Positions 16,188 to 50,574 of a DNA stretch of 64,000 bases are shown here, piece after piece; position 1 is the stretch's first letter; each line of letters begins with the position of its first letter. The stretch lies in the NCBI RefSeq assembly GCF_058153355.1, contig NZ_CM177019.1; one strand, 5' to 3'. The notes below the pieces were generated by a model that was not told the DNA's origin, searched no databases, and worked only from the letters and a program-made list of their open reading frames with translations. Both the position numbers and the translations under genes were made by a program.

Positions 16188-18179
16188 TTAAATGACTTTT
16201 TTACGTCTGTTCTGTTCCAGAATATCCAGCGAATGATTCAGATATTCATCACGCTCAGTTTCGTATTCATCATCACGCTCCTGATTCTTCACCCGTTCCG
16301 TATTACCGGAAGGCCGGAAAATGCTTACAATTCGTGATTCTGGTGCTTCAGGTTCGGCTATCTGCGGCAGCAGCTCTGCCACTTCCAGTGCATCCATTTG
16401 TTTCTGTGCCTTAATCGCTGCTTTCGTCGCAGATTTCAGTTGTTTCTGGCGGCGGCGATATTCACGGCCTGCCGCAGCATCATTAAACGCAACAGGTGCC
16501 AGACATTCCGCTTCACAGATAAACCGACCGTCCAGGGTGTAGCAATAAACCGTGCTGTGTAACTGCTGTGGATCAAATCTGACCACAACTTTTTTCACTC
16601 CGGCATTCATTAACGCCATGTTGTAATAAACGTTTTTCGCGCCTTTAAGGGAGCCGCCAACTTTAAGCGCGAACTCGCCTTTACGTGAAACGTTCACCGC
16701 CTCGGCAGGCAGTAACAGCATCCGTTTTTGCTCTTCGGTAGGCTTACGCACAATCGTTCTGGCGTATTCACGCTCAAAAACGTCATCAAACGAAAGTTTG
16801 CCCCCGCACATTTCTGTTTCTCGGCCTGTTCTGGCATTGAACATCGCCACACCTTCGGCAAGGGTTTTCAGAAACAGCTCTGCATCAACAGCGCGGTCGC
16901 CATAGTTATCAGGTTTTGCCTGCGGATTAGGCCCCGTATATGCGCCAGCCAGTGCCGGATGTTTATCAACGTATTCCTCAAGGCCACCAACACCGAAAGC
17001 ACGTTCTACAGGTTTTGCCTGGCCCCAGCCTTTACCGGCAACAACGCTTGTCCAGTGCATGGTCGCCCCCATCAGTAAAAACAGCCCCTTTGGATCGTCC
17101 TCTTTCACCTTAAAGCGGTAGCGATTGGGCGCGCCCCCCGTCAGCCATTTATTCGCAGCACCACGGGTGTTATCAATGGTGATGTGAAAATCCTCCGGGA
17201 TGCCGTAGCGTGTCACTACATCCATGAACGAGAGGCGAATTGAATCGATGTTCTCGCTAACATCGCAGCGCCAGCCCAGAATTTTTCGGGTTTTCACATC
17301 CTGCCAGAACCATGTTTTCGGGCGGATCACATCACCGTTAAACCAGCGTACAAAGACGTTATGCAGATAACCGTCGCCGTTGATCCACTGCATGGCGTCC
17401 AGGTGTTCCACAGTTCGTTGCTGTGCCGGTATCAGATGCATCAGTGCATGTTCACCTTCACGGCAGGCAACAACCATTGCCCCGTCCAGTTGCTGAATCC
17501 GGCGAAATGCCGTGGCTCGGGAGGGAATACTCCAGCCATGCTCGCGGGCTGCCAGTTCCAGACGCTCATAACATTTGCGGAAGGCGGGTTTTTCCGGTCG
17601 CAGATAATCTGCAATCAGAAACTGCCAGGCATCCTCGTCAAATTCACTTTTGTGAACATTGCGACGGGATGCTCCACGTCCATCAACAAGTGCAGCCGCC
17701 CAGTCAGGCTTCGCAAACTTCTGTACCTGGTAATACTTGTCCCGCAAAGTGGATGCGCTGACCTGGTAATGCCCTGCAACGGTCGCAAAAGCCGTTTTCG
17801 TTGAAATCCCCTGGTTCAGCATTTCGTCTGCAGCCTGAACCGCAGGCAACCATTTTTCAGCAAGTCTGCGCTGGGAATCGCTGGCGTTATCCCATTTGCT
17901 CCACAGTGCCTCACGATCATAATCATGGGCTTCCAGCGTGGGGCGGGCGATTTCAAAATACCCCTGACTTGTTTCAATCTCTCCTTGTCTCAGCAATAAC
18001 GCCGCTTTCGCTTCAACAGGTAAAGAGTTCGCATTGTATTCAATTGCTTTACCACCTTTGACACCTGCTCTAGTGCGGTTTTGCCATCCTTGCTTTTTAG
18101 CAACATAAATCACACCAGCCGATGTTTTCGGCAAACCAGGAAGATTCGCACACTCTTTCGGTGATACCCAAAGTTCCAT
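16188..18179 (-). CDS. A: Mu transposase MuA
   Basis: Track ORF 666 aa; canonical 663-aa MuA begins at [23 protein letters not shown] (ATG at 18179). Confidence 0.95.
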
Positions 18180-18180
18180 G

Positions 18181-18408
18181 TTATTCACCTGCTTGATATC
18201 GGCTAGGCCAGATTACTTCCGGTTTAGTTTCTAAGGCGTTAGCAATAATCTGCTCACCCTTTGGCCAGTGTCGTTCTAGCGCATTAGCTAATGTAGTTGG
18301 CGCATAACCGAACTGCCGGGAAAGAGCTGATAAAGAGAGCTTTCTTTTCTTAAGTCCCGCAATCACATCCGCTCGATGCCAATCACGGGCCTTTTCGTTG
18401 GAACACAT
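18181..18408 (-). CDS. ner: Mu Ner, early-transcription negative regulator
   Basis: ORF track 75 aa, [36 protein letters not shown]... Confidence 0.9.
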
Positions 18409-18577
18409 TTAAAAACCCTCCTAAGTTTTGTAATCTATAAAGTTAGCAATTTAACTAAGTGTAAAAACTTAGCTAGCTTGCTAAAAAGATAATTACTGAA
18501 AAGCTTTTTGTAAAGTTACTTTTTAGTAAATTTCTTTGATTACTGATTAATGCATTGATAAATAAGGGGTTTAAATT
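18409..18577. promoter_or_regulatory. Mu early operator/promoter region (O1-O3, divergent Pe and Pc, Ner and IHF sites, transposition enhancer)
   Basis: AT-rich divergent intergenic region between c and ner with repeated CTTTT/AAGT-type repressor half-sites. Confidence 0.7.
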
Positions 18578-19168
18578 TTGAAAAGTAACTTTATAGAAAA
18601 AGACGATACTGAAAAGTCAATTTGGTGTTCGCCGCAAGAAATTATGGCTGCTGATGGTATGCCTGGATCTGTTGCTGGTGTTCACTATCGAGCAAATGTT
18701 CAAGGCTGGACGAAGCGAAAAAAGGAAGGTGTCAAGGGGGGGAAAGCTGTTGAATACGATGTGATGTCTATGCCCACCAAAGAACGAGAGCAAGTTATTG
18801 CGCACTTGGGGTTATCCACACCGGATACTGGTGTTCAAGCCAATGAGAAACAGGATTCTTCGGAACTGATAAACAAATTAACCACAACCTTAATCAATAT
18901 GATTGAAGAGCTGGAACCAGATGAAGCACGCAAGGCACTGAAACTTTTAAGTAAAGGGGGGTTGTTGGCGTTAATGCCTCTTGTATTTAATGAACAGAAA
19001 CTTTACAGCTTTATAGGATTTTCACAGCAAAGTATTCAGACGTTGATGATGTTAGATGCATTACCTGAAGAAAAACGCAAAGAGATTTTGTCAAAGTATG
19101 GGATTCATGAACAGGAAAGTGTTGTAGTACCTTCACAGGAACCACAGGAGGTAAAAAAAGCCGTATAA
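18578..19168 (+). CDS. c: Mu repressor c
   Basis: ORF track 196 aa, MKSNFIEKDDTEKSIWCSPQEIMAADGMPGSVAGVHYRANVQGW... Confidence 0.95.
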   Translation: MKSNFIEKDDTEKSIWCSPQEIMAADGMPGSVAGVHYRANVQGWTKRKKEGVKGGKAVEYDVMSMPTKEREQVIAHLGLSTPDTGVQANEKQDSSELINKLTTTLINMIEELEPDEARKALKLLSKGGLLALMPLVFNEQKLYSFIGFSQQSIQTLMMLDALPEEKRKEILSKYGIHEQESVVVPSQEPQEVKKAV

Positions 19169-19319
19169 CAACCATGAACCAGCTAAAACATACTTCACCT
19201 CACATAATCACACATGTAACATACCTAAACGGCATAAGCTGATTTGTGATATGAGTCATTTGGTGACAGCCTGGTTGTTATCGGTTTTGAACGTTTTTTG
19301 AAGCTGTTATTGAAATGAT

Positions 19320-19506
19320 TTGCAGTGTTTTTGTTTTTCGTATTTTGAATGAAACAAAAGCAATTTTTTACTATCTTTCGCGTTTCATTGATTAACGACT
19401 AAAATTTGCGCTACAGGCTTGCAAGCCCCACCAAATCTAATCCCATCAGATCCCGAATAATCCAATGTCCTCCCGGTTTTTTTCGTACTTCAAGTGAATC
19501 AATACA
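19320..19506. repeat. Mu left end (attL) with transposase binding sites L1-L3; terminus at 19506
   Basis: Sequence ...cccggtttttttcgtacttcaagtgaatcaataca is the reverse complement of the canonical Mu left terminus. Confidence 0.85.
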
Positions 19507-19540
19507 CCGGGTATGTCGTTATTCAATAAAGGTGCCTCGT

Positions 19541-20443
19541 ATGCAAATCACCAACATGCATTGCAGTGGACAAACCGTTTCACTTGCCGCGGGGGATTAT
19601 CACGCGACTATCGTGACGGTTGGTGCTGGTCTGGCTGAATTAACTTTTCAGGGTTGTCATTTAGTCATCCCGCACAAACCCGAAGAGATGCCGCTGGCGC
19701 ATCTGGGTAAAGTGCTTATTCCGTGGCCGAACCGGATCGCCAACGGCTGTTACCGCTATCAGGGACAGGAATATCAGTTACCCATTAATGAACATAGTTC
19801 AAAAGCCGCTATTCACGGGCTGCTTGCCTGGCGAGACTGGCAAATTAGCGAATTAACCGCCACCAGCGTTACCCTGACAGCTTTTCTACCGCCCAGTTAC
19901 GGCTATCCGTTTATGCTGGCTTCGCAGGTTGTTTATTCGCTCAATGCTCGCACGGGCCTTTCCGTTGAGATCGCAAGCCAGAATATTGGTACTGTGACCG
20001 CACCTTATGGTGTGGGTATTCATCCTTATTTAACCTGCAACTTAACATCTGTTGATGACTATCTTTTCCAGCTTCCGGCAGAACAGGTTTATGCCGTCGA
20101 TGAGCACGCAAATCCGACAACGCTTCACCACGTTGATGAGCTGAATTTAAATTTCACGCGGGCGACAAAAATAGCCGCGACAAAAATAGACCATACCTTT
20201 AAAACCGCTAATGATCTGTGGGAAATGACCATTACCCATCCACAGCAGGCGCTGTCGGTGAGTCTTTGTTCCGATCAACCCTGGGTGCAGGTTTATAGCG
20301 GCGAAAAATTACAGCGTCAGGGACTGGCAGTTGAACCTATGAGTTGCCCGCCTAACGCCTTTAATTCAGGTATCGACTTATTATTACTGGAACCAGGAAA
20401 AACGCACCGCCTGTTTTTTAATATTCACGGGCAGCACAATTAA
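19541..20443 (+). CDS. yihR: Aldose 1-epimerase family protein (sulfoquinovose mutarotase YihR-like)
   Basis: ORF track 19406..20443; the Mu end at 19506 lies inside that ORF, so the ATG at 19541 with AAAGG Shine-Dalgarno is used; GIHPYL epimerase-type motif; synteny with yihQPO. Confidence 0.8.
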   Translation: MQITNMHCSGQTVSLAAGDYHATIVTVGAGLAELTFQGCHLVIPHKPEEMPLAHLGKVLIPWPNRIANGCYRYQGQEYQLPINEHSSKAAIHGLLAWRDWQISELTATSVTLTAFLPPSYGYPFMLASQVVYSLNARTGLSVEIASQNIGTVTAPYGVGIHPYLTCNLTSVDDYLFQLPAEQVYAVDEHANPTTLHHVDELNLNFTRATKIAATKIDHTFKTANDLWEMTITHPQQALSVSLCSDQPWVQVYSGEKLQRQGLAVEPMSCPPNAFNSGIDLLLLEPGKTHRLFFNIHGQHN

Positions 20444-27156: not shown

Positions 27157-27168
27157 TGTAAAAATGTA

Positions 27169-27198
27169 AAAAGCCGCTGATATTTAAGCGGCTTTTTA
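27169..27198 (+). terminator. Rho-independent terminator after ompL
   Basis: Hairpin aagccgct-gatattt-aagcggctt followed by a T-run. Confidence 0.7.
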
Positions 27199-27336
27199 CA
27201 CAGATATTCACAATATAAATAACTCCCCATAATTATATAACCGCGTTGATTATAAAATATTCCTCGTCCTCTCTATCAAAGTCATTGACTACCAGGTAAG
27301 ATCTTTTCCACTGCAACACTCACAAGGAATGAGAAA

Positions 27337-28185
27337 ATGGAAAAGAAATTTTTTATGGATTGGGATAATGAAATCCCGCAAGAAGAGTTTATTAACAATA
27401 TTTTAGCCGATGAAGACCTGCCTAAAATCCGCTCTCTGATTATTGGTCGTTGGGGGGAGTGCTGGGATGAGGAAAGTTGCCAACCAATAATCGACATGTT
27501 TGTTGAACATGCCGAACGCTTTGCTCATCTCGAATCCCTATTTATCGGCGATATGGAAAGCGAAGAGTGTGAAATTTCGTGGATAAAACAAGGGGATTAT
27601 TCTCGTCTGTATGCTGCGCTGCCGAACCTGAAAAAGCTGACAATTAAAGGTACTCAGGGCCTGGAACTGGGAGAAATCGCCCATGACAAACTGGAGCATC
27701 TGGAAATTATCTCTGGCGGTACGCCGTGTGACGTGTTCGCCTCATTGCAAAATGCCCAACTGCCTGCGTTAAAAACACTTATCGTTTATATTGGCGTTGA
27801 GAATTATGGTTTTGATGCATCGCTGGATATCGTAATGAAGCTGGCGTCGAAATCCCTCTTCCCGAGCCTGACGCATCTTGGCCTGGTGAACAGCGAAGAG
27901 CAAAACGAAATCGTCCGCCGCGTGCTGGAAAGCGACATTCTGCCGCAACTGGAAGTGCTGGCACTCTCCTGCGGTACGCTTACCGACGAAGGTGCAGAGC
28001 ATCTTCTCAAACATGCCGATCGCCTTAGCCATCTGAAACTGCTGGATTTGTACCATCATTACCTGACAGAAGAGATGCAGAAAAAACTGCAAAAAACACT
28101 GACATGTACTCTCGAATTATCAGAAGCGCTAACGCCTGAAGTCTATGATGACGAAATTTATATGCATGCGATGTATACCGAATAA
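27337..28185 (+). CDS. Leucine-rich-repeat (ribonuclease-inhibitor-like) cytoplasmic protein; first gene of non-K-12 operon
   Basis: ORF track 282 aa; repeated LxxLxxLxL units (LPNLKKLTIKG, LEHLEIISG, LPALKTLIVY, FPSLTHLGLVN, LPQLEVLALSCGTLTDEGAEHLL, LSHLKLLDL); AAGGA Shine-Dalgarno. Confidence 0.7.
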   Translation: MEKKFFMDWDNEIPQEEFINNILADEDLPKIRSLIIGRWGECWDEESCQPIIDMFVEHAERFAHLESLFIGDMESEECEISWIKQGDYSRLYAALPNLKKLTIKGTQGLELGEIAHDKLEHLEIISGGTPCDVFASLQNAQLPALKTLIVYIGVENYGFDASLDIVMKLASKSLFPSLTHLGLVNSEEQNEIVRRVLESDILPQLEVLALSCGTLTDEGAEHLLKHADRLSHLKLLDLYHHYLTEEMQKKLQKTLTCTLELSEALTPEVYDDEIYMHAMYTE

Positions 28186-29232
28186 ATGACATTTATTGGG
28201 AGAGAGTCATCTCTCCCATTATTTATCACAGAAAAGGAATTCTTCGTGATTACGCTAATTGGTCATCCTGAAAGCAAACGCACATTTTATTTTTGCCAGG
28301 CAGCGTCACGCTTACAGGAACATATCAACGTAGTGAGCTATGATCAAGCACTTACCCTGCTCTTAAATAAAGGCATGGTAAAAATCGATCCCCCCTTACA
28401 TCAGGAAACAGATATTCGCTTAATTAATACGGTTAGCCAAAACTATATTACTTTTTTACAAAAAATGGCTACCAGAAGGGAGATCCGTTTTATTAACTCA
28501 CCAGAAGGTATTATTCATCTTCTGGATAAACGCCACTGTAAGCAACGATTAGTCGAACACGCGATCCCGACACCGCCAATATTAGCGGATGATATCCGTA
28601 GCTACGATCAACTGATCGCCTGTATGCGCAGCGAAAAGGTTTATCGCGTGTTTATTAAGCCGAATTTCGGATCAGGGGCCGCCGGGGTGCTGGCTTTGAG
28701 TCTACATCCCGGCGATAACCGTCAGGCGCTTTATTGCGCCATCCAGGTTGCAGGTGACAGGCTGGTGAACAGTAAACATATTATCCGCTATGAAAACAGC
28801 GGTGATATTACGTTGATTGTGAATGCTATTTTACAACAAGACAATATTATCGAACGCTGGCTGGCAAAAGCCAGAGTGGGCAATAAAAGCTACGATTTAC
28901 GCATAGTGTACGTTAATGGTGAAATCGTCTGGCGGGTTGTCAGAACATCATCACAGCCGATCACCAATTTGCATCTGCAAAATGAAGCCATTCGTTTTGC
29001 CGATCTTAATTTACCCGCAGAAAAAGTGGCTGACATTGACACGCTTTGTCTCAACGCCATGAAACTCTACCCGGACGTACACATTGCCGGGCTTGATGTA
29101 TTACTCACGCAAAACTTAACCCCCTATATTATCGAAATTAACGGCCAGGGCGATCTTATTTATCAGGACACCTGCGAACAAAATATGATTTATCAACGCC
29201 AGATTCAGGTAATGAGAGAACACCATGTATAA
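28186..29232 (+). CDS. ATP-grasp ligase, RimK-like
   Basis: ORF track 348 aa; KPNFGSGAAGV and EINGQGD ATP-grasp motifs; alternative GTG start at 28246 with AAAGGAA Shine-Dalgarno. Confidence 0.75.
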   Translation: MTFIGRESSLPLFITEKEFFVITLIGHPESKRTFYFCQAASRLQEHINVVSYDQALTLLLNKGMVKIDPPLHQETDIRLINTVSQNYITFLQKMATRREIRFINSPEGIIHLLDKRHCKQRLVEHAIPTPPILADDIRSYDQLIACMRSEKVYRVFIKPNFGSGAAGVLALSLHPGDNRQALYCAIQVAGDRLVNSKHIIRYENSGDITLIVNAILQQDNIIERWLAKARVGNKSYDLRIVYVNGEIVWRVVRTSSQPITNLHLQNEAIRFADLNLPAEKVADIDTLCLNAMKLYPDVHIAGLDVLLTQNLTPYIIEINGQGDLIYQDTCEQNMIYQRQIQVMREHHV

Positions 29233-30097
29233 CGTAACAGACGAAGTCCCGGAAAATACCCGCACGGCAATCCATTCCTGCGATGGCGAAATCAATATGA
29301 ATGATTTGATAGCCAGGGAGGCGAATGTTCTGTTTGTAGTGCTTGATTCCCTGCGTTTTGATATTGCGTTTCAGGAACAAGAGGCGGGCAATACGCCGAA
29401 CATTAACCGCTATGGTCGCTGGATAAAGTGCGAAGCCGCTGGCAATTTTACCTGGCCTTCGCATCATTCGATGTTTTCTGGTTTTATGCCTAAGCCGCTG
29501 GAAGCCGCACCGGGCCATTCAATGCTCTTTTTTCCCAAAGATATTGGCTTAGGGCGTTTAGGGCCAAAAAATGCATTCGCATTCAGCGAAGAGACGTGGA
29601 TTAAAGGGCTGGAAAACAAAGGTTACCGCACTATCTGCGTGGGTGGCATCTCCTTTTTTAATAACCGCTCAGGGATGGGAAAAGTGTTCCCGGCGATGTT
29701 TAAAGAGAGTTACTGGTATCCTAATTTCTCCTGCACGGTGAAAGAGAGCATGGATAATCAGCTCACCTTAATTAACAAAAAGGTGAACGCTGAACAGCCG
29801 CTGATGATGTATATCAATATCGACACCATTCATTATCCGAATCATTTTTATATTGAAAATGCCAAACCTGGCGATACGGTAGAAACTCACGCCGCTGCCC
29901 TGCATTATATTGATGCCAGAATCGAAAAACTTTTCGATATCTTTCGGCAAACCGGGCGGGAAACGTTAGTTATTCTCTGTTCCGATCATGGCACCTGCTA
30001 CGGGGAAGACGGTAAATATTTCCACAGTTTTAACCATCCGATTGTGAATACCGTACCCTATTTTCACTTTGTGTTAGACGGCAAAGACCATGAATAA
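29225..30097 (+). CDS. Alkaline-phosphatase-superfamily metalloenzyme, type I phosphodiesterase / nucleotide pyrophosphatase (NPP)-like
   Basis: ORF track 290 aa; VVLDSLRFD metal-ligand motif, NFTWPSHHSMFSG (Thr nucleophile context), C-terminal CSDHG. Confidence 0.65.
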   Translation: MYNVTDEVPENTRTAIHSCDGEINMNDLIAREANVLFVVLDSLRFDIAFQEQEAGNTPNINRYGRWIKCEAAGNFTWPSHHSMFSGFMPKPLEAAPGHSMLFFPKDIGLGRLGPKNAFAFSEETWIKGLENKGYRTICVGGISFFNNRSGMGKVFPAMFKESYWYPNFSCTVKESMDNQLTLINKKVNAEQPLMMYINIDTIHYPNHFYIENAKPGDTVETHAAALHYIDARIEKLFDIFRQTGRETLVILCSDHGTCYGEDGKYFHSFNHPIVNTVPYFHFVLDGKDHE

Positions 30098-31232
30098 TGA
30101 ATCGATTTATCAGCAATATATGTACAGTTACCCGCATAAGACCGCTTATCGGGAATTAAACAATATTGCTTTTGCGGATGTGAAATCGCGTATTTACGAG
30201 CATAAAACACATCTCTATATTCATATGCCTTTTTGCCAGAGCCGCTGCGGGTTTTGTAATCTCTTTACCTGCACGGGGGCAGACAATGCCTTTATCGACA
30301 ACTACATAGAAGCAATTATTATCCAGGCCCGGCAAATGCAACTTGCGCCTGTAGACTGGGCCAGTTTTACCATTGGCGGCGGTACGCCACTACTGCTTAA
30401 TACCGGGCAACTGTCACGGTTGTTTCGCGGGGTGTTTGACGAATTACAGGTCGATGCGCAGATTTTTAAGGCAATTGAAACATCGCCTTCCGATACCACC
30501 GCCGAAAAGGTCGCGTTATTGCGCCAGCTTGCGGTAAGCCGCGGCAGGGGTAATTTCCCGATAATCAATATTGATATTATTTACGGTATTCCTGGTCAAA
30601 CAGCCGCAAGTTTAATGGCGTCGCTTAATCAGGCATTAGATTATCAGCCTGACGAACTTTTTTTGTACCCGCTGTATAACATGCCGCGCCAGCCGGATAT
30701 GTATAGCCTCTATATTGAAGCCCGCGATCGCTTATTGCATGAAGGTTATACGCAAACGTCAATGCGCCGTTTTGTGCGGGTGAATAATGAGTCGACGGCT
30801 GAAAGTTGTGGCTTTGAAAATTCGCTGGCGCTTGGCGCGGGCGGGCGCAGTTATCTTGGCAATTTACATTACTGCACGCCGTGGTCGCAAAACCAGCCCG
30901 CATCGCGGCAAATTGTCACGGATTTTATCGCCCGGCCAGATAAGACCCAGATTCACCACGGCTATGTACTTTCACAAGCAGAAATGAAGCGGCGTTTTAT
31001 TATCAAGAATCTCTTTTTCTATAAGGGGCTTTCGTTACGGGATTATCAGCATCAGTTCTTCTCTGAGGTATTAAGCGATTTTCCCCTGCTGGGAGATTTC
31101 ATCAAACAAGATTACTGCCACCAGCAGGATAATCGTATTCTGCTCACCGCGCAGGGTTTAGCGCTTTCGGACCAGCTTGGCCCGCTGTTTATCTCCCCGG
31201 AAGTTCGCAGGCTGGAGACGCATAAACGATGA
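30090..31232 (+). CDS. HemN-like radical SAM enzyme (HemN/HemW/class C rSAM methyltransferase family)
   Basis: ORF track 380 aa; YIHMPFCQSRCGFC CxxxCxxC motif, FTIGGGTP, IDIIYGIPGQT; parallels hemN in this window (YVHIPFCHKLCYFC). Confidence 0.8.
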   Translation: MNNESIYQQYMYSYPHKTAYRELNNIAFADVKSRIYEHKTHLYIHMPFCQSRCGFCNLFTCTGADNAFIDNYIEAIIIQARQMQLAPVDWASFTIGGGTPLLLNTGQLSRLFRGVFDELQVDAQIFKAIETSPSDTTAEKVALLRQLAVSRGRGNFPIINIDIIYGIPGQTAASLMASLNQALDYQPDELFLYPLYNMPRQPDMYSLYIEARDRLLHEGYTQTSMRRFVRVNNESTAESCGFENSLALGAGGRSYLGNLHYCTPWSQNQPASRQIVTDFIARPDKTQIHHGYVLSQAEMKRRFIIKNLFFYKGLSLRDYQHQFFSEVLSDFPLLGDFIKQDYCHQQDNRILLTAQGLALSDQLGPLFISPEVRRLETHKR

Positions 31233-32086
31233 CGCTCAAGCAGATCCAGACGCTGATTTATCGCGGCGAGATAAAGTCGTGTAATTATCGCTGTGGTTAT
31301 TGCCCTTTTCATAAACAAGACCGCAATGATAAACAGCAGGATGAAGTGGCATTATGGCGCATGGTTGAACATTTACCGGCGCTGGGTTCACCATTAAATG
31401 TATTTATTACGCCCTACGGCGAAGCATTGCGTTATCGTTATTATATGGCGGCGATGGCGGAAATCAGCCGCTATTCCCATGTGCAGGCGGTGGGTATTCA
31501 GACCAACGCCTCTTTTAATTTATCCACCTTAGTCGCGACTTTTCAGCACTCTCAGGGCGATTTAGCAAAGCTGCGGCTGTGGTGTTCGTTTCATCCTTCC
31601 CAGGTCAGTAAAGAAGTTTTCCTTAAACAGTTACTGGCAATTAAGGACACGGGGATTACCTGTTCTGTGGGGGCCGTCGCCAGCGTAGCCGACTATGACG
31701 AATTACAGTGGTTACGCGCGCATCTTCCTCCCGATATCTATTTCTGGCTAAACGCCAATGAGCGCGATAAAAGGCCCACCAGCGACGAAAGAAATAGCCA
31801 GTTTCAGTTGCTGGACCCGCTTTATTATCTGGAAACCAGCCTCTGGCCTGCCAATGTCGAGTTTTGTCTGGGCGGCAAAAAGAGCGTGTTTATGAATGCT
31901 GATGGCGATCTCTTCGCCTGTAATATCAGCAAAATTAAGATTGGCAATTTATATCAACAGCAACTTTCATCTCCGGCTTGTATGTCCAGGCACTGTCACT
32001 GTTATCTGGCTTATCACCTGCGTGAGGATATTCCGGCCCTCTCACAATTTGATGCTGAACGCTGCTTTCGGATCTTCTCGTTATGA
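31229..32086 (+). CDS. Small radical SAM-like protein with viperin-like cluster motif
   Basis: ORF track 285 aa; N-terminal CNYRCGYCPFH (CxxxCxxC); C-terminal cysteines CNISK...CMSRHCHC; ATGA overlap with the upstream gene. Confidence 0.55.
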   Translation: MTLKQIQTLIYRGEIKSCNYRCGYCPFHKQDRNDKQQDEVALWRMVEHLPALGSPLNVFITPYGEALRYRYYMAAMAEISRYSHVQAVGIQTNASFNLSTLVATFQHSQGDLAKLRLWCSFHPSQVSKEVFLKQLLAIKDTGITCSVGAVASVADYDELQWLRAHLPPDIYFWLNANERDKRPTSDERNSQFQLLDPLYYLETSLWPANVEFCLGGKKSVFMNADGDLFACNISKIKIGNLYQQQLSSPACMSRHCHCYLAYHLREDIPALSQFDAERCFRIFSL

Positions 32087-32778
32087 TCTGGCGGTTAATC
32101 GCGCTCGATTTAGACGGCACATTGCTGAACAGCAAGAAGATGATTTCCCCTGCGTCTGTTTCGGCACTGCAAAGCGCACAACAGGCAGGTGTGAAGATTA
32201 TCCTTGCCACCGGACGTTCGCACAGCAAAGCCCTGCCTTATTACCAACAATTGCAGTTAACCGAGCCGATGATTTGCTGTAACGGCAGCTATCTTTATCA
32301 TCCGCGCCAGCGGCAAATATTGCGTCCGCTGGCGCTTGATATCCACAAGGTGGAACAACTACGACTCTGGTTTTCACAACAAATATTGCAGCCAAATATT
32401 TATACGTACGATGATTTTGTTTTGCAGATTAGCCTGATACACCGCAAGACTTCGTTATTGCGCCAGACAGAGGAATTTGCCCGGCAAGAATTATCGCTGG
32501 CCTGTAGCTGGTCCTGGCATCATCAACTGGATATTACTCAGGCGGGGTGCGATAAAGGCAAAAGTCTGCTCTGGTATGCCCAGCAGCAAAATATCGCGCT
32601 GGATGAAATTATTGCCTTTGGCGACAACGATAATGATGCGGGGATGCTGCGGATGGTAGGCAAAGGGATTGCGATGGGCAATGGCAGTTCGCTGGCAAAA
32701 GTCAGTGCTGACCGCGTTATTGGTCACAACAACACAGATGCTATTGCGGATTTTCTTGATGCGCAGGGTTTCAGATGA
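32083..32778 (+). CDS. HAD-superfamily Cof-type (IIB) phosphatase
   Basis: ORF track 231 aa; LIALDLDGTLL (DxDGT) and FGDNDNDAGM motifs. Confidence 0.8.
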   Translation: MIWRLIALDLDGTLLNSKKMISPASVSALQSAQQAGVKIILATGRSHSKALPYYQQLQLTEPMICCNGSYLYHPRQRQILRPLALDIHKVEQLRLWFSQQILQPNIYTYDDFVLQISLIHRKTSLLRQTEEFARQELSLACSWSWHHQLDITQAGCDKGKSLLWYAQQQNIALDEIIAFGDNDNDAGMLRMVGKGIAMGNGSSLAKVSADRVIGHNNTDAIADFLDAQGFR

Positions 32779-32821
32779 CGCCTGATGCGATGCTGGCGCA
32801 TCTTATCAGGCCTACAAAAGC

Positions 32822-32851
32822 AAAAAACCTGCCATCGCTGGCAGGTTTTTT
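32822..32851. terminator. Bidirectional Rho-independent terminator between the island operon and typA, next to a REP-like element
   Basis: aaaaaacctgccatcgctggcaggtttttta hairpin flanked by A- and T-runs. Confidence 0.75.
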
Positions 32852-32868
32852 ATGACTAAAAAACGAAA

Positions 32869-43236: not shown

Positions 43237-46023
43237 TTAGTGCGCCTGATCCCAGTTTTCGCCACTCCCCACTTCCACCAGCAACGGCACATCCAGACGG
43301 GTACAGTTTTCCATCAGTTGATGAATCTGTTTCGCGACGGCATCGACATCATCTTTATGAACTTCAAATACCAGTTCATCGTGTACCTGCATAATCATAC
43401 GCACACGCGGTTGCTCAGCTTGTAACCACGCATCAACGGCAATCATCGCTCGTTTGATAATGTCGGCGGCGGTTCCCTGCATTGGCGCGTTAATGGCTGC
43501 ACGTTCAGCCGCTGCACGACGAGCACCATTGCTGGATTTGATATCCGGCAGATACAGACGGCGTCCGTCCAGCGTTTCAACGTAGCCCTGTTCTTTCGCC
43601 TGCGCACGGGTGCGCTCCATATACTCCAGCACGCCTGGGTAGCGTTCGAAGTAAAGGTCCATGTACTTCTGCGCTTCTTTACGTGGAATGTTCAATTGTC
43701 GCGCCAGACCGAAAGCACTCATGCCATAAATCAGACCAAAGTTGATCGCTTTCGCGCTACGACGTTGCTCGCTGGTGACGGTTTCCAGTGGCAAACCAAA
43801 CACTTCTGCCGCCGTAGCCCGGTGGATATCTTTTCCTTCCGCGAATGCGGTCAGCAAGCCTTTGTCACGCGAGAGATGCGCCATAATGCGCAGTTCAATC
43901 TGCGAGTAGTCCGCCGAGACAATCACATAATCCTCTGGCGCAATAAACGCCTGGCGGATACGACGACCTTCTTCGTTACGCACCGGAATGTTTTGCAGGT
44001 TAGGATCGGTTGACGATAAACGTCCCGTTGCGGTTACTGCCTGGTGATAAGAGGTATGTACACGCCCGGTTTTCGGGTTGATCATCAGCGGCAGCTTGTC
44101 GGTGTAGGTCGATTTCAGCTTCGCCAGACCACGATACTCCAGAATCACTTTTGGCAACGGATAGTCCAGCGCCAGTTCTTCCAGTACCTCTTCCGACGTT
44201 GACGGCGCACCACCCGGCGTTTTCTTCAGCGGTTTAATGCCCTGTTTTTCAAACAGAATGGTTTGTAACTGCTTGGTGGAAGAAAGGTTAAATTCTTCAC
44301 CTGCAATTTCATGCGCTTTCTTTTCCAGCTCAGCCAGACGTAGAGTGAGCTCTTCAGAATGATTATGAAGCACTTTCGGATCGATCTTCACACCGTTACG
44401 TTCAATGCGTGAAAGCACCGGCACCAGCGGCATTTCGATGTTCTCGAAGACGTTCAACGGCCCTTTGTGTTTTTGCAGATCCGGCCACATTTTCAGATGC
44501 AGCTGCAAGGTGACATCGGCATCTTCGGCTGCGTAACGTCCGGCCTCTTCGAGGGCAATCTGGTTAAAGGTCAGTTGATTTTTGCCTTTACCGGCAATCT
44601 CTTCAAAAGTGATGGTTTTGTGCTTCAACCAACGTTCCGCGAGGCTGTCCATATCGTGACGCCCGGCAACGCTATTGAGAATGTAGGATTCAAGCATGGT
44701 ATCAAACGCAATCCCACGCAGCTCAATGCCGTAATTCGCCAGAATACCGCGATCGTATTTTAGGTTTTGCCCAACCTTCAGCGCCTTTTCATCTTCCAGC
44801 AGCGGTTTTAGCAACTCGAGTGCACGCCCGCGAGAGATTTGATCGGGCGCATCAAGATAATCATGAGCAACCGGAATATATGCCGCTACGCCTGGCTCGA
44901 TAGCAAAAGAAAGCCCGACCAGGTTGGCAGAGATGTTATCGAGGCTGTCGGTTTCGGTATCAAATGCAAATACCGGCGCTTTTTCCAGCTTCGCAATCCA
45001 CGCTTTCAGTATTTCTTCATCAAGGATGGTGACGTAGTTGTCATAAGAAATCACCGTTGCCGTCACTTCTGGCGCTTCGTCTGCAACACTGGTTTCCTGC
45101 GGCTTCGCGGCTGGTTTTTCCCCTTTAGCCTGTAACCATTTGCCCGCTTCGACATCAGCAGTCCAGCGTTTGAACTCATACTTTTTGAACAGCCCCAACA
45201 ACTCTTCCGCCGCCGGTTGCTGCACTTCCAGTTGTTCACAGGTCAGCTCCAGTTCAACGTCGGTTTTAATCGTCGCCAGCTGGTAAGAGAGATAAGCCAC
45301 TTCTTTGTTTTGCTCGAGCTTCGCTGCCATTGTTTTCGCGCCACGGAAGCTCAACCCAGCAATTTTTTCTGGCTCGGCATACAGCGTATCCAGTCCGCCA
45401 AGACCTTGCAGCAATGCCTGCGCGGTTTTTTCACCAACGCCCGGTACGCCAGGGATGTTATCGGAGGAGTCACCCATCAGCGCCAGGAAATCGATGATCA
45501 GTTCTGGCGGCACGCCGTACTTATTCACCACCTCTTCCGGTCCGAGGATGGTATTCGTCATGGTATTGATAAGCGTAATATTTGGCGTCACCAGCTGCGC
45601 CATATCTTTATCGCCAGTGCTGATCAGCACCGGACGCCCGGCTTTTTCGGCTTCGCGCGCCAGAGTACCGATAACGTCGTCCGCTTCTACGCCAGAAACC
45701 GCCAGCAGCGGCAGTCCCATCGCTTTGACCATCGCGTGCAGAGGTTCGATTTGTGCTCGCAGATCGTCCGGCATTGGCGGGCGATGTGATTTGTAATGTT
45801 CAAACAGTTCATCACGAAAGGTTTTTCCCTTGGCGTCAAAGACCACCGCTGCATGCGTCGGTTTATATTGCATGATTAGACTGCGCAGCATGTTGAGGAC
45901 ACCATACATCGCACCGGTCGGCTCGCCTGCGCTGTTAGTCAGCGGGGGAAACGCGTGATATGCGCGATAAAGATAAGATGAACCATCTACAAGGATAAGT
46001 GGATTTTGGGGGATCTGAACCAT
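43237..46023 (-). CDS. polA: DNA polymerase I
   Basis: ORF track 928 aa, [45 protein letters not shown]... Confidence 0.97.
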
Positions 46024-46145
46024 AATGTCCGTGCCTGTTTATCAGATTATGGGTAAAGGATGCCACAGACAGGATGAAAACATGAGTTTTTCACCGCTTT
46101 TCGTGAAAATCTTTTGTAGATCTTCTGGATCGCTCGCAAATCGTC

Positions 46146-46296
46146 ATGTGGATAACTTTGTGCATAAATTATTTACATCACTTTTAATTTATTATCATGC
46201 TTTTTACAGCATGATGTTTGTCTTTGCTTTTCATACAGTTAAATATAAAGCCATCCCTAATAATTGTGATAATGGGATTTTTTCTAATGTGGATAG
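46146..46296. promoter_or_regulatory. polA promoter region with DnaA boxes
   Basis: TGTGGATAA at 46146..46154 and TGTGGATAG at 46288..46296, reverse complements of the TTATCCACA consensus. Confidence 0.6.
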
Positions 46297-46386
46297 ATAT
46301 GAATTATTTTTCTCCTTAAGGATCATCCGTTATTTGGGGCGTTTTCTGCTAAAATCGGCGCCTTGCGCTTCTTTAGCGCACTGTCT

Positions 46387-47319
46387 ATGGCTAACCTTTT
46401 GAATAAATTCATTATGACGAGAATACTCGCTGCGATAACCCTTTTGCTGAGTATCGTATTGACCATTTTGGTCACTATTTTTTGCTCCGTCCCGATCATC
46501 ATTGCCGGGATTGTAAAACTATTGCTACCTGTGCCAGTCATTTGGCGAAAGGTTTCGCGTTTTTGTGATTTTATGATGTATTGCTGGTGTGAAAGTCTGG
46601 CGGTATTACTGCATCTGAACCCACACCTGCAATGGGAAGTTCACGGGCTGGAAGGGTTAAGTAAGAAGAACTGGTATCTGCTTATTTGTAACCACCGTAG
46701 TTGGGCAGATATTGTCGTACTGTGCGTGCTGTTTCGTAAGCACATTCCGATGAATAAATATTTCCTCAAGCAGCAGCTTGCCTGGGTGCCATTTCTTGGC
46801 CTGGCATGCTGGGCGCTGGATATGCCGTTTATGAAGCGTTATTCCCGCGCTTATTTATTACGTCATCCGGAACGACGTGGTAAAGATGTTGAAACCACCC
46901 GGCGTTCTTGTGAAAAGTTTCGCCTGCACCCCACCACCATTGTCAATTTCGTTGAAGGCTCCCGTTTCACGCAAGAAAAACATCAGCAAACCCACTCCAC
47001 TTTTCAAAACTTGTTGCCACCAAAGGCGGCAGGCATTGCGATGGCGCTAAATGTACTGGGTAAACAATTCGATAAACTGCTTAATGTTACGCTGTGTTAT
47101 CCGGACAATAACCGTCAGCCGTTCTTCGATATGTTAAGCGGTAAACTGACGCGAATTGTCGTACATGTGGATTTGCAGCCTATTTCCGATGAGTTACATG
47201 GCGACTACATCAATGACAAAAGCTTTAAGCGCCATTTTCAGCAATGGCTGAACTCACTGTGGCAGGAAAAAGACCGGCTTCTGACGTCGTTGATGTCATC
47301 ACAGCGGCAGGACAAGTAA
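46387..47319 (+). CDS. yihG: Acyltransferase-family inner-membrane protein YihG
   Basis: Track ORF 46363..47319; [22 protein letters not shown]...; start chosen by recall of the roughly 310-aa K-12 protein. Confidence 0.8.
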
Positions 47320-47359
47320 ATTTTGCTCGCCTCTGAATGAGCAGAGGCGAGTGAGTATT

Positions 47360-48790
47360 TTAATGAACAAAACGTCCGGCACGAGACATAAATTCTTCTT
47401 CGCTCATCTCCTGTCCGTTAAAAACAACTTTACCCGGTGTATAACGCAGTTGCAGCGAGGCGGTATTGTTGTCAATCGTGATTAACTGAAACATCTGACC
47501 TAATGTCATCATCCCGCTGATTTGTTTATCAGCCTGCTTTTGCGCTTTTTCCGCATCCATGCCTTCAGATAAATTAAGCTGTTTTGCGGTTTCTGTGACA
47601 ACATTAAGCGGTAACTTCACGTCAAAATTGAGCGATTTAATATCTTTGTTTGTGGATGATGAAGATTTGGCTGGGTCGGCAATACTGATATCCAGATTGG
47701 CATTTAGTTCGCCGAGTGCGTTCTTCCATCTTACCGGTTGTTTAATGGTCGGCTCACTTTTTTGTAATAACGGTAAATACTCTTTGAACAATGCAGCATT
47801 CACTTCTTGCAGAGCAACTTCATCGTTTGCTAACTCAGGGTGTGCAGCAAGCTGCTTCTGCATCGCAATGTTATACTGAATGATAAATTGGCGCACCGCT
47901 GAGGGATCAATAGATTCCGCAATCAAGGACCACTCACCACTACCGAGTTGCTGATTCCCTTTTGTTAACTTATCAAGTTCGTAGGTCAGATTGACATTGA
48001 TATAATCTTTGTCTTTAACGCGATCCAGCCTGGTTTTTGCAACGAAAGCATCGATTTGGGCAACGTCTTCTCCCTGATTGATAATGTTAATCTTGTTAAA
48101 TTTCGACTCGCTTTCGCCAACCGGAAATTTCTTTTCTTCTAATCGCGTCAGAGAATCAATGGTAAAACTTTTCGCTGTTACTTTGTTCAATGGCGATAAT
48201 TCCAGAACAAGATCTTCGACTTTGCCTTCAATATCCAGATTAAACAATGAACTACCATCACCATTAAAAGTAAACTGGCCTTCACCAAAAGAAAAATTTC
48301 CATATTTTGCAGGGGCAACATCTAATGTCGTGGAGAATGAGCCACCAAACGCGAATCGCAATGTCGCTTCCACGGGCGATTTATTTTTTGCGGCGATAAA
48401 TAGCGGTTGTGTCAGTTCATTATTCACTAAGTTCACTTTTGCCGCTGCCAGTACGGGGATGACATTACCACGCATTAACATTGTGATGGGCAACGGACCG
48501 TGCTCAACATCCACATCAAATGCAACTTTCTGGCCTGGCTTGATATTGAGATCGGGTGCACCGTTATCAAATGTCATTTGCATTTGAAAATGAGAATTAA
48601 AAAAGCCTTTGTCAAAGTTTTTATAACTTAACGTCATATCGTAGGCATGTTCACCTTTCTTTTTAGCATCGTTAAAATCTTTAATAAACTTTTCGACACC
48701 AGGCTGAATTTGCGTACCTGTGTACCATGTGCCACCACCCCAGATTACGGCTAACGCAACAATAACACCTGTAGCTGACTTACGTATCAT
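47360..48790 (-). CDS. yihF: DUF945-family protein YihF
   Basis: Track ORF 47360..48832; N-terminal signal/TM segment MIRKSATGVIVALAVIWGGGTWY. Confidence 0.8.
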   Translation of the reverse strand: MIRKSATGVIVALAVIWGGGTWYTGTQIQPGVEKFIKDFNDAKKKGEHAYDMTLSYKNFDKGFFNSHFQMQMTFDNGAPDLNIKPGQKVAFDVDVEHGPLPITMLMRGNVIPVLAAAKVNLVNNELTQPLFIAAKNKSPVEATLRFAFGGSFSTTLDVAPAKYGNFSFGEGQFTFNGDGSSLFNLDIEGKVEDLVLELSPLNKVTAKSFTIDSLTRLEEKKFPVGESESKFNKINIINQGEDVAQIDAFVAKTRLDRVKDKDYINVNLTYELDKLTKGNQQLGSGEWSLIAESIDPSAVRQFIIQYNIAMQKQLAAHPELANDEVALQEVNAALFKEYLPLLQKSEPTIKQPVRWKNALGELNANLDISIADPAKSSSSTNKDIKSLNFDVKLPLNVVTETAKQLNLSEGMDAEKAQKQADKQISGMMTLGQMFQLITIDNNTASLQLRYTPGKVVFNGQEMSEEEFMSRAGRFVH

Positions 48791-48944
48791 ATAAATATTC
48801 CCTGATAAAACAGCAAAACTTTGAATATCCACTTATGCTGAAATAATGTCCAGCGGCAGGACGCATTATCAGAATGTATTTATATTTATTAAATAATAAA
48901 AAAAGCCCGTGAATATTCACGGGCTTTATGTAATTTACATTGAA

Positions 48945-49571
48945 TTATTTTTTCTCGGACAGATATTTCACAGTATCAGCATACTGCTGAACAAAAACAT
49001 CCATATTGCTGGTATCCATACCCTGCGGATTCAGCTGATATTTACCGTTAACAAACATCGCCGGAACGCCACGCAATTGCACGTCAGCTGCAGCTTTTTC
49101 CTGCTGAGCGACCAGGGATTTCACCACGAAGCTGTTCCACGCCGCGTCGTACTCTTCACCTTTAATACCTGCGTTGATAAATACATCGCGGATATCAGAT
49201 GCTGAACGAATGGTCTGGGTTTTCTGTACGCCTTCAAACAGCGGAACAGTGACTTTGTCTTCCACGCCCAGTGCCATCGCCACTGCCCATGCCTGAGTCA
49301 GATCTTTGCCCAGGTCACCCCCCATGAAGTTGACGTGGTATTTAGTCATCTTCACGCCTTCCGGCAGTTTTTTCTTCACGTTATCAGAAATATGCAGAAC
49401 TTCTTCAAACTGATAGCAGTGCGGGCAGAAGAAAGAGAAAAACTCCAGCACTTGCGGCGCGCCAGCTACCGGTTTTTCCAGGGTAGTGTACTGTTTACCA
49501 TCTTCATACTGCGCCGCCGATGCGCTAAACGCTAAAACTAAACCAGCCAGCGCCAGCCAAATCTTTTTCAT
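48945..49571 (-). CDS. dsbA: Periplasmic thiol:disulfide oxidoreductase DsbA
   Basis: ORF track 208 aa with CPHC active site. Confidence 0.95.
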
Positions 49572-49587
49572 GATCTACTCTCTCCGA

Positions 49588-50574
49588 TTAATACATAGGT
49601 GTTAATTGCAAAGGGGGTTCTTGTAGAACTTTTGCCTGTTCTATAAAAGTCGCCGTCTGTCGCAGCCAGTAATCTTCCCCGGTTAACCACGGGAAATTTT
49701 TCGGGAACGCGGGATCAGCCCAACGCCGCATTAGCCAGGCAAGATAATAAACCAAACGCATGGCGCGTAAAGGTTCAATCAGTCCGATTTCAGCGGTGTC
49801 GAACTCGCTAAATTCTTCATAAGCCTCAATAATAGTTTCCAGTTGCATCCGCTGCTCGGCTTTATCGCCATTGAGCAACATCCACAAATCCTGAATAGCC
49901 GGACCATTACGTGCATCATCCAGATCAACAAACATTGGACCATCGCGCCAGAGGATATTCCCGGCGTGGCAGTCTCCATGTAGCCGCAGAACGGTGAAAT
50001 CTTCCCGCCAATGTGCTGTAACGGCGGCGATCAGCTCATCTGTCGCTTTCAGGAATGCCGCTTTCAACCCGGAAGGTATCAGTGTAGCGTCCTCAAACAG
50101 CTTGCGTGGCTCAATGAGATATTCATTCAGACCGATGGTCGGGCGATGGATAAAAAGCTGTTTGCGCCCCGTCTGGTGCATACGCCCTAAATAACGCCCA
50201 ACAGCTTCCATCTGATCGATATTATCAGCTTCGAACTGGCGACCACCGACGCTTGGAAAAACAGCGAAATAAAATCCCTGATGATTCAATAAAGTCTGAC
50301 CGTTAAAGGCCACAGGCGCTGCGACCGGAACTTCATCGTTAACCAGCTGCAACGCAAATTGATGTTCTTCGAGGATTTGATCGGCTGTCCAACGTTCAGG
50401 GCGATAAAATTTGACGACAAAACGTCGACGATCTTCGTCCTGAAATTGATAGACACGGTTTTCATAGCTGTTAAGCGGGGTAAGACCGGAATCCACCCGG
50501 ATCCCATGCTCAAACAGAGCGTCCATGATGGTATCCGGGTGTAGTGTCTGGAAAGTAAAAGCGCTGTTGTTCAT
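49588..50574 (-). CDS. srkA: Stress-response Ser/Thr kinase SrkA (YihE)
   Basis: ORF track 328 aa; synteny upstream of dsbA. Confidence 0.9.
   Translation of the reverse strand: MNNSAFTFQTLHPDTIMDALFEHGIRVDSGLTPLNSYENRVYQFQDEDRRRFVVKFYRPERWTADQILEEHQFALQLVNDEVPVAAPVAFNGQTLLNHQGFYFAVFPSVGGRQFEADNIDQMEAVGRYLGRMHQTGRKQLFIHRPTIGLNEYLIEPRKLFEDATLIPSGLKAAFLKATDELIAAVTAHWREDFTVLRLHGDCHAGNILWRDGPMFVDLDDARNGPAIQDLWMLLNGDKAEQRMQLETIIEAYEEFSEFDTAEIGLIEPLRAMRLVYYLAWLMRRWADPAFPKNFPWLTGEDYWLRQTATFIEQAKVLQEPPLQLTPMY

Follow-up and report, generated by a model that had tools for sequence, protein, structure and literature searches.

A Twitch-type radical SAM enzyme of the STM4011 family in a conserved operon with a glutamate-terminated leucine-rich repeat protein

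The STM4011 gene and its operon

The stretch of DNA analysed here (64,000 nucleotides of contig NZ_CM177019.1, assembly GCF_058153355.1; hereafter the window) is Escherichia coli chromosome, and the gene of interest lies at 31229–32086 (+ strand, ATG start, 285 residues). It encodes a radical S-adenosylmethionine (SAM) enzyme of the STM4011 family with a canonical CX3CX2C site, a partial TIM-barrel core and a C-terminal Twitch-type auxiliary-cluster domain. Fifth in order, the gene belongs to an operon of six translationally coupled genes, STM4015-4014-4013-4012-4011-HAD (HAD, haloacid dehalogenase-type phosphatase). A preliminary description, made from the sequence alone, had likened the product to viperin and its prokaryotic counterparts (pVips).

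The radical SAM [4Fe-4S] loop can be read directly from the DNA at 31280–31303 (+), whose codons specify C18-x3-C22-x2-C25 (CNYRCGYC). Residues 17–28 are SCNYRCGYCPFH, legible at 31277–31312, confirming the N-terminal CxxxCxxC motif of the preliminary description as S-C-N-Y-R-C-G-Y-C-P-F-H. Towards the C terminus there are five further cysteines: C213, C231 (in ACNISK) and C251, C256 and C258 (in ACMSRHCHC). Guided by the alignment to SkfB described below, we assign them to a Twitch region encoded at 31865–32002 (+), patterned C213-x12-G226-x4-C231 ... C251-x4-C256-x-C258. Conservation was judged in two alignments of 57 and 35 homologues, 30–92% identical to the query. In both, C18, C22, C25, P62, G64, E65, Q91, N93, C213, C231, C256 and C258 are invariant, with G226 and C251 invariant or almost so; because it persists across 35–57 homologues, the cysteine pattern is selected and not a product of chance. 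The C-terminal cysteines had been flagged previously as a possible auxiliary Fe–S site (omitting C213), and they are indeed present, conserved and of Twitch pattern. The segment ITPYGEAL, described earlier as non-canonical, is better viewed as this family's own version of the GGE SAM-binding motif (a YGE variant), since P62, G64 and E65 are invariant. STM4011 therefore combines the CX3CX2C motif, a GGE-type SAM motif and a partial (βα)6 barrel, the features by which radical SAM enzymes are recognized.

The operon begins with an STM4015-family protein (27337–28185, +; 282 residues) composed of ribonuclease inhibitor (RNI)-type leucine-rich repeats (LRRs) and an acidic C-terminal tail, ...DDEIYMHAMYTE-COOH. 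The last 12 codons (28147–28182, +) form a proposed attachment or modification site, judged by conservation of the tail. Next come an STM4014-family ATP-grasp ligase (28246–29232, +; a PGAP-equivalent start, the longest open reading frame (ORF) beginning at 28186; NF038074, 335 bits against a cutoff of 175), an STM4013/SEN3800-family hydrolase with a short alkaline-phosphatase/sulfatase fold and a predicted Thr nucleophile (29225–30097, +; NF038075, 350 bits), and an STM4012-family HemN-like (class C-type) radical SAM protein (30090–31232, +; NF006067, 425 bits over two separate matched stretches). All four of these families exceed their curated NCBIfam cutoffs. Beyond STM4011 lies a Cof-type HAD-IIB phosphatase of 231 residues (32083–32778, +; TIGR00099, 183 bits against a cutoff of 137) with the DxD motif DLDGT. 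The STM4011 start overlaps the STM4012 stop in an ATGA at 31229–31232, and the HAD start overlaps the STM4011 stop in the same manner (4 nt, 32083–32086), so the reported translational coupling to a HAD phosphatase holds; in many other genomes the two are fused. The enzyme of nucleotide pyrophosphatase/phosphodiesterase (NPP) type said to precede the gene does have a Thr nucleophile, but it is two genes upstream, with STM4012 intervening.

Two symmetric hairpins bracket these genes and are probably bidirectional terminators. One, with flanking A/T runs, follows ompL (27164–27201); the other, GC-rich and likewise with A/T runs, was found by terminator scan at 32821–32852, in the gap that separates the HAD gene from the convergent typA, and probably marks the operon end. 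A weak sigma-70-like promoter candidate (27207–27236, +; 9/12 matches in a consensus scan) sits just past the ompL hairpin. Gene order across the window is yihQ-yihP-yihO-ompL, the cassette, then typA-glnA-glnL-glnG. Elsewhere in the window, G+C content falls to 0.42–0.44 at 18001–20000 and 46001–50000, against approximately 0.50–0.56 in the remainder, and these stretches may be horizontally acquired.

The STM4012 gene of this strain has suffered a 96-bp in-frame deletion (junction ~30543/30544, flanked by GCG.CAG microhomology), leaving 380 residues where other E. coli have 412. The 32 residues lost, VSIGxQSFNDLELATLHRRHSAxNAHRALELL, comprise a conserved R-x-S-I-G-x-Q-S-F...LELL core that other E. 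coli possess and that the distant homologue P0252 conserves. As STM4012 is without this segment, the pathway is probably inactive in this strain, although the STM4011 ORF is intact.

Family identity and the resemblance to viperin

STM4011 matches NCBIfam NF038073 (STM4011 family radical SAM protein) with 299 bits against a cutoff of 200, aligning residues 8–282 to model positions 2–277 of 278; the family is thus already catalogued and named, but uncharacterised. Pfam gives weak matches only (Radical_SAM, E = 0.0013; SPASM, E = 0.0039). An AlphaFold2 (AF2) model is confident (predicted local distance difference test (pLDDT) 94.9, predicted template-modelling score (pTM) 0.92), and a Foldseek comparison of the model with solved structures places SkfB at the top (template-modelling score (TM) 0.58). 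Profile searches of the PDB with the family returned SkfB (for the C-terminal region) and BtrN (for the N-terminal core) as the best radical SAM matches. The Twitch region of the STM4011 profile corresponds to that of SkfB cysteine for cysteine ('...FCTPGYLAWYIRADGYVTPC...KCEAKNCKC', residues 320–389 of 6EFN; E = 0.00098), and the C terminus agrees with the SPASM/Twitch signature C-x9-15-G-x4-C. A second CX2CX5CX3C block is not present in the 285 residues; this, the chain length and the count of five rather than seven cysteines favour a Twitch domain, with one predicted auxiliary cluster. We are highly confident in the family and Twitch assignment made on these motifs and profiles, with the auxiliary cluster itself a prediction.

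SkfB, the sporulation killing factor sactisynthase of Bacillus subtilis, is a Twitch radical SAM maturase of a ribosomally synthesized and post-translationally modified peptide (RiPP). Despite the shared Twitch cysteine pattern, STM4011 is only 12–13% identical to it and is missing the SkfB N-terminal domain (285 versus 412 residues); unlike sactipeptide clusters, the cassette has no short Cys-containing precursor peptide, and its partner genes differ. BlsE (cytosylglucuronate decarboxylase, 7VOB), BtrN, DesII, AbmM and MoaA are no more than 16% identical to STM4011, which matched none of their family models, and the cassette is without the glycosyltransferase or nucleotidyltransferase genes of BlsE-type pathways.

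The viperin reading was examined with a positive control, a human viperin sequence validated against PDB 5VSL (633 bits). The control scored 220 bits with the PADLOC pVip model, 262 bits with NF038283 (cutoff 180) and 706 bits with TIGR04278. STM4011 gave 12.6 bits (PADLOC pVip) and 14.9 bits (NF038283), in each case from residues 16–47 only, more than 150 bits short of what the viperin hidden Markov models (HMMs) require. Aligned by hhalign, the STM4011 and viperin families share 13 columns, namely the cluster loop itself: the resemblance of the very similar CNYxCGxC loops, and of a radical SAM partial barrel, is real, but the motif likeness that had been remarked upon stops at the loop. No viperin chain appeared at E ≤ 10 when all PDB sequences were searched with the STM4011 profile. 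In Foldseek, viperins score TM 0.47–0.52 (SkfB, 0.58), amid DesII, anSME (anaerobic sulfatase-maturating enzyme), AbmM, BtrN and EpeE; judged from the model, viperin would be one of many neighbours with a common generic core, not the nearest and no specific relative. The published definition of viperins rests on HMM matches and a phylogeny in which MoaA is the outgroup, together with a (βα)6 barrel bearing a C-terminal extension (bioRxiv 10.1101/2023.09.13.557418). STM4011 carries its five-Cys Twitch motif where viperins have the C-terminal extension that closes the barrel over a nucleoside triphosphate (NTP); an auxiliary cluster is a feature that viperins do not have. By HMM scores with a control, hhalign, and profile and fold searches of the PDB, a viperin or pVip identity is rejected, and we hold with near-certainty that STM4011 is not a viperin.

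The genomic context likewise departs from that of pVips, having no defence or kinase genes. None of the six proteins has a PADLOC match at E ≤ 0.01, the sole match at E ≤ 10 being the 12.6-bit pVip loop, and comparison of the cassette with PHROGs returned two generic families only, one of radical SAM proteins and one of hydrolases. Across the flanks of 80 loci there is no recurring family of defence or mobile genes; the flanks are housekeeping genes. Two matches in phage collections, one a Salmonella contig and the other a 5.9-kb fragment labelled unverified, are mis-filed Salmonella DNA. The fragment, OR850900.1 in INPHARED ('UNVERIFIED_ORG: Salmonella phage S.Kent 1-2-1', unannotated), holds a Salmonella STM4011 gene and most likely derives from the host chromosome and not from a phage. 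An association of the cassette with defence or phage is rejected on these grounds. In a metagenomic contig (L006; 1–3826 and 10796–18858), the cassette is found beside genes for bpX0/bpX1/bpX3-domain proteins, a recombinase, an integrase and a transposase; this is the sole locus we saw with a conflict-system or mobile context. The preliminary description had itself named two outcomes that would tell against its viperin proposal, and both were seen: a confident match to another radical SAM family (NF038073, 299 against 200 bits, with the viperin model NF038283 at 14.9 against 180), and no homologues found in defence contexts.

Partner proteins, the STM4015 tail and distribution

The closest PDB sequences to STM4013 are sulfatases (6j66, 3.6e-8). 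Its motif reads F-T76-W-P-S-H80, in which Thr replaces the Cys or Ser of the sulfatase C-x-P-S-R and the motif Arg becomes His. Among 73 homologues, Thr occupies the formylglycine position in all 73, never Cys or Ser, and T76, H80, D41 and D254-H255, which include Asp/His metal ligands, are invariant. The invariant Thr and metal ligands indicate that STM4013 would act in phosphoryl transfer, as an alkaline-phosphatase-superfamily enzyme and not as a sulfatase matured by a radical SAM partner.

STM4014 is a divergent ATP-grasp enzyme. After its own family, its next-best characterized NCBIfam matches are MptN (5.5e-10), RimK (1e-9), LysX (1.3e-7) and CofF (3.8e-7), all far below cutoffs. Enzymes of all four families join an amino acid to the carboxylate of a terminal glutamate. 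Of 80 loci, 53 have the HAD phosphatase fused to the STM4011 C terminus, one or two encode it separately and approximately 26 lack it; the link between HAD and radical SAM enzyme is real and not obligatory. The fused domain is of Cof/sugar-phosphatase type (PF08282, PF05116). One protein, P0252 (738 residues), joins STM4012 and STM4011 in a single chain; no second example was seen, and a frameshift at the ATGA overlap could have produced it artefactually.

STM4015 is a 282-residue LRR solenoid whose repeats resemble those of NLR-type (nucleotide-binding, LRR-containing) proteins (NOD2, NLRP3). It is acidic (isoelectric point (pI) 4.6), whereas the cassette enzymes are near neutral or mildly basic. 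Its C terminus is conserved to the final residue. Counting back from the carboxylate in 69 non-redundant homologues, Glu is found at −1 in all 69, Thr at −2 in 67, Met at −4 in 63, Pro or Ala at −5 in 67 and Tyr or Trp at −8 in 64. The consensus is ...DEYDGEIYxx[AP]M[LI]TE-COOH, preceded by an acidic run, with ...DDEIYMHAMYTE the version in the window, and an [AP]MLTE ending is found in 120 of the 120 best database matches. A second tail subtype, also Glu-terminated (...RYVAVxE, ...WRFVALGE, ...RFISISE), occurs in Streptomyces, Deinococcus, Duganella, a Planctomycete and the metagenomic locus L006. Some genomes carry two or three tandem STM4015 genes, and in a tandem-duplicated homologue (P0082, 561 residues) the LRR body is doubled and the tail appears only at the true C terminus. 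No description of this tail was found in the searchable literature. Longer Bacteroidales homologues (L022, L035, L041, L048 and L059) have at their N terminus an additional WGR domain (PF05406, best E = 3e-20), which is known elsewhere from PARP-type (poly(ADP-ribose) polymerase) proteins.

Scanning one genome per species, we find STM4011 relatives in at least 515 genomes. The matches listed are mostly from Lachnospiraceae and other Clostridia, together with Bacteroides, Phocaeicola and Parabacteroides, and fewer from Peptococcaceae, Planctomycetaceae, Duganella and Superficieibacter. Records of plasmids and chromids extend this range to Deinococcus, Streptomyces, Embleya, Nonomuraea, Methylobacterium and Paenibacillus; these plasmid matches are large secondary replicons, mostly non-mobilisable. 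Among 1.84 billion representatives, the family forms 275 clusters (50% identity) at E ≤ 1e-30. The cassette genes have homologues in Salmonella as well.

Synteny was counted in the 72 loci whose upstream sequence spans 4.3 kb or more: all five families are present in 66, in the order STM4015-4014-4013-4012-4011 in 64, an arrangement also seen in the annotation of other E. coli, Streptomyces and Deinococcus. Colinearity of the five core genes extends to Proteobacteria, Clostridia, Bacteroidales, Actinobacteria, Deinococcus and Planctomycetes. RefSeq annotates the cassette alike in 157 of 5426 complete E. coli genomes (~3%). The ompL–typA interval is polymorphic in this species, and K-12 has yihL-yihM-yihN in place of the cassette (NC_000913.3, 4060231–4063602). 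Compared with a lineage ~5% diverged, the E. coli cassette genes are under purifying selection, with ratios of nonsynonymous to synonymous substitution (dN/dS) of 0.08–0.22.

Beyond a MATE efflux pump in 10 of 80 loci, no extra gene recurs beside the cassette among flanking ORFs of at least 100 residues. In Streptomyces, Deinococcus and a Planctomycete, a DUF6745 protein and a conserved ~105-residue protein adjoin it (L087, 1415–3037, −; L088, 8891–10212, −; L039, 1095–2617, +), and may be further members of the system; these lineages are those with the ...VAVxE tail subtype and without the HAD. Proteins following the cassette in L003, L005 and L006 were considered as added members and rejected, being unrelated to each other and to DUF6745.

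Possible chemistry on the STM4015 tail

Our best overall explanation is that the STM4011-family Twitch enzyme works within its conserved operon in chemistry based on the STM4015 tail, a view to which we give about an even chance. Tail-templated chemistry on STM4015, argued by analogy, is itself possible, if somewhat the less probable outcome: a free C-terminal Glu beside a RimK/LysX-like ligase recalls LysW/LysX, RimK–S6 and products templated on a C terminus. More tentatively still, the folded LRR protein would serve as the template, its Glu tail loaded by the ATP-grasp enzyme, with the two radical SAM enzymes and the Thr-nucleophile phosphotransferase or diesterase building a C-terminal prosthetic group or a releasable small molecule. 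In such a scheme, STM4014 would activate the carboxylate of the terminal Glu and couple it to an amine, loading or extending the tail, and STM4012 and STM4011 would remodel the tethered group or the tail by radical chemistry. STM4011 would reductively cleave SAM and, jointly with the HemN-like STM4012, use the resulting 5'-deoxyadenosyl radical to abstract a hydrogen atom from a substrate close to the Twitch cluster; the substrate would most likely be built on, or derived from, the Glu-terminated tail. The part of STM4013 and the HAD phosphatase would lie in attaching a phosphate ester to an intermediate or taking one off.

LysW receives the LysX substrate at its terminal Glu; ribosomal protein S6 is extended by RimK, which adds Glu at the C terminus. 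The cassette is like these systems in setting an acidic protein with an invariant C-terminal Glu next to an ATP-grasp enzyme weakly similar to RimK and LysX. It differs in that STM4015 is a 282-residue LRR protein and LysW a 54-residue zinc-ribbon protein, in having two radical SAM enzymes and two phospho-enzymes downstream in place of the kinase, reductase and aminotransferase of the LysW system, and in having no LysK-type releasing amidase. In mycofactocin (MftA/MftC), pyrroloquinoline quinone (PQQ; PqqA/PqqE) and pearlin biosynthesis, a ribosomal product with an invariant C-terminal motif undergoes modification by a SPASM/Twitch-type radical SAM enzyme. The cassette shares with these pathways the invariant C-terminal motif (in STM4015), the radical SAM enzyme and, in some genomes, multiple copies of the candidate precursor. 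Their precursors, however, are short peptides recognized through a RiPP recognition element (RRE, or PqqD), whereas STM4015 is a folded LRR protein, no RRE was detected and there is no peptidase; Pfam finds no RRE or PqqD domain in STM4011, whose core starts at about residue 8, and no small ORF family that might be a short precursor gene recurs in the flanks, in a screen that covered ORFs of at least 100 residues.

Several observations weigh against tail-based chemistry. The resemblance of STM4014 to RimK and LysX is weak (≤38 bits), and its profile retrieves from the PDB only weak, generic ATP-grasp enzymes. The LRR body of STM4015 is conserved nearly as strongly as the tail, and AF2 orders most of the tail (pLDDT ~91, residues 271–280); the tail could therefore be structural. 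No amidase or peptidase that might release a product recurs in or beside the cassette in the loci examined. A few genomes carry STM4011/4012(/4013) with no STM4015/4014 nearby. The structural neighbours of STM4011 include enzymes acting on free nucleotides and sugar nucleotides (BlsE, MoaA, DesII, AbmM, viperin), and a fused HAD of sugar-phosphatase type is no less suited to a small molecule in free form than to one that is tethered. Full-text literature searches found no functional study of any member of the cassette families; the mentions found were an unannotated sigma-54 chromatin immunoprecipitation (ChIP) site inside STM4013 and an entry for STM4015 in a table of positive selection.

These points lead to the rival that carries most weight, a pathway making or degrading a soluble phosphorylated sugar, nucleotide or nucleotide sugar, with STM4015 as scaffold or regulator and its tail structural. 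It retains the earlier idea of a modified nucleotide processed by phosphatases, minus the viperin claim. That the top structural neighbours include small-molecule Twitch-type enzymes active on nucleosides or sugar nucleotides (BlsE, MoaA, DesII, AbmM, BtrN) speaks for it, as do the Cof/sugar-phosphatase HAD, the NPP/EptA-like Thr nucleophile of STM4013, the MATE pump near some loci and the want of an RRE or leader-binding domain in STM4011. It leaves unexplained, however, why STM4015 conserves a free C-terminal Glu, why it is coupled to a RimK/LysX-like ligase and why it is found in tandem copies, and the HAD on which it draws is missing from approximately 26 of 80 loci; we consider it unlikely on balance, with an appreciable chance of being correct. 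The sulfatase-like fold of STM4013 suggests another arrangement, in which STM4011 acts as an anSME-like maturase oxidizing an STM4013 active-site residue to a formylglycine type. Here the invariant Thr at the formylglycine position is decisive, and this candidate is rejected as very improbable; the Arg-to-His change, a TIGR03942 score of 15.7 bits against a cutoff of 349, and five C-terminal cysteines with one Twitch motif, versus the seven-Cys SPASM, run the same way, and maturation of STM4013 would leave the other four genes unexplained.

The likeness of the STM4015 repeats to NOD2 and NLRP3 raises the prospect that the cassette is a new system of conflict or defence, the LRR protein (with WGR in some lineages) being its sensor and a toxic or signalling molecule the product of its enzymes. 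The WGR fusions of Bacteroidales, the one metagenomic locus near bpX-domain and mobile-element genes, and the accessory status of the cassette in E. coli (157/5426 complete genomes) could be read in this way. Yet the LRR is 45–50% identical across phyla, with a dN/dS of 0.11, unlike fast-evolving sensors; the chromosomal position in E. coli is fixed; and with no recurrent defence or mobile family in the flanks and no PADLOC or meaningful PHROG signal, such a role seems improbable. The proposal with which the locus came to us, a prokaryotic viperin-like enzyme converting an NTP into a chain-terminating ddh-nucleotide (3'-deoxy-3',4'-didehydro) for antiviral use, its product processed by the phosphatases, is extremely improbable given the profile, fold and context comparisons above.

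The viperin lead is thus false, and showing so saves effort. What the locus holds is a self-contained operon with two radical SAM enzymes, carried by at least 515 species-level genomes that include Salmonella and abundant human-gut Clostridia and Bacteroidales, and for which no function or publication was found. The Glu-terminated tail and the radical SAM–HAD fusions make the function of the cassette open to specific, inexpensive experiments. If the model of chemistry on the STM4015 tail is true, the logic of carrier proteins and RiPPs would apply to a folded LRR scaffold as well, and gut bacteria and enteric pathogens would possess a new radical chemistry.

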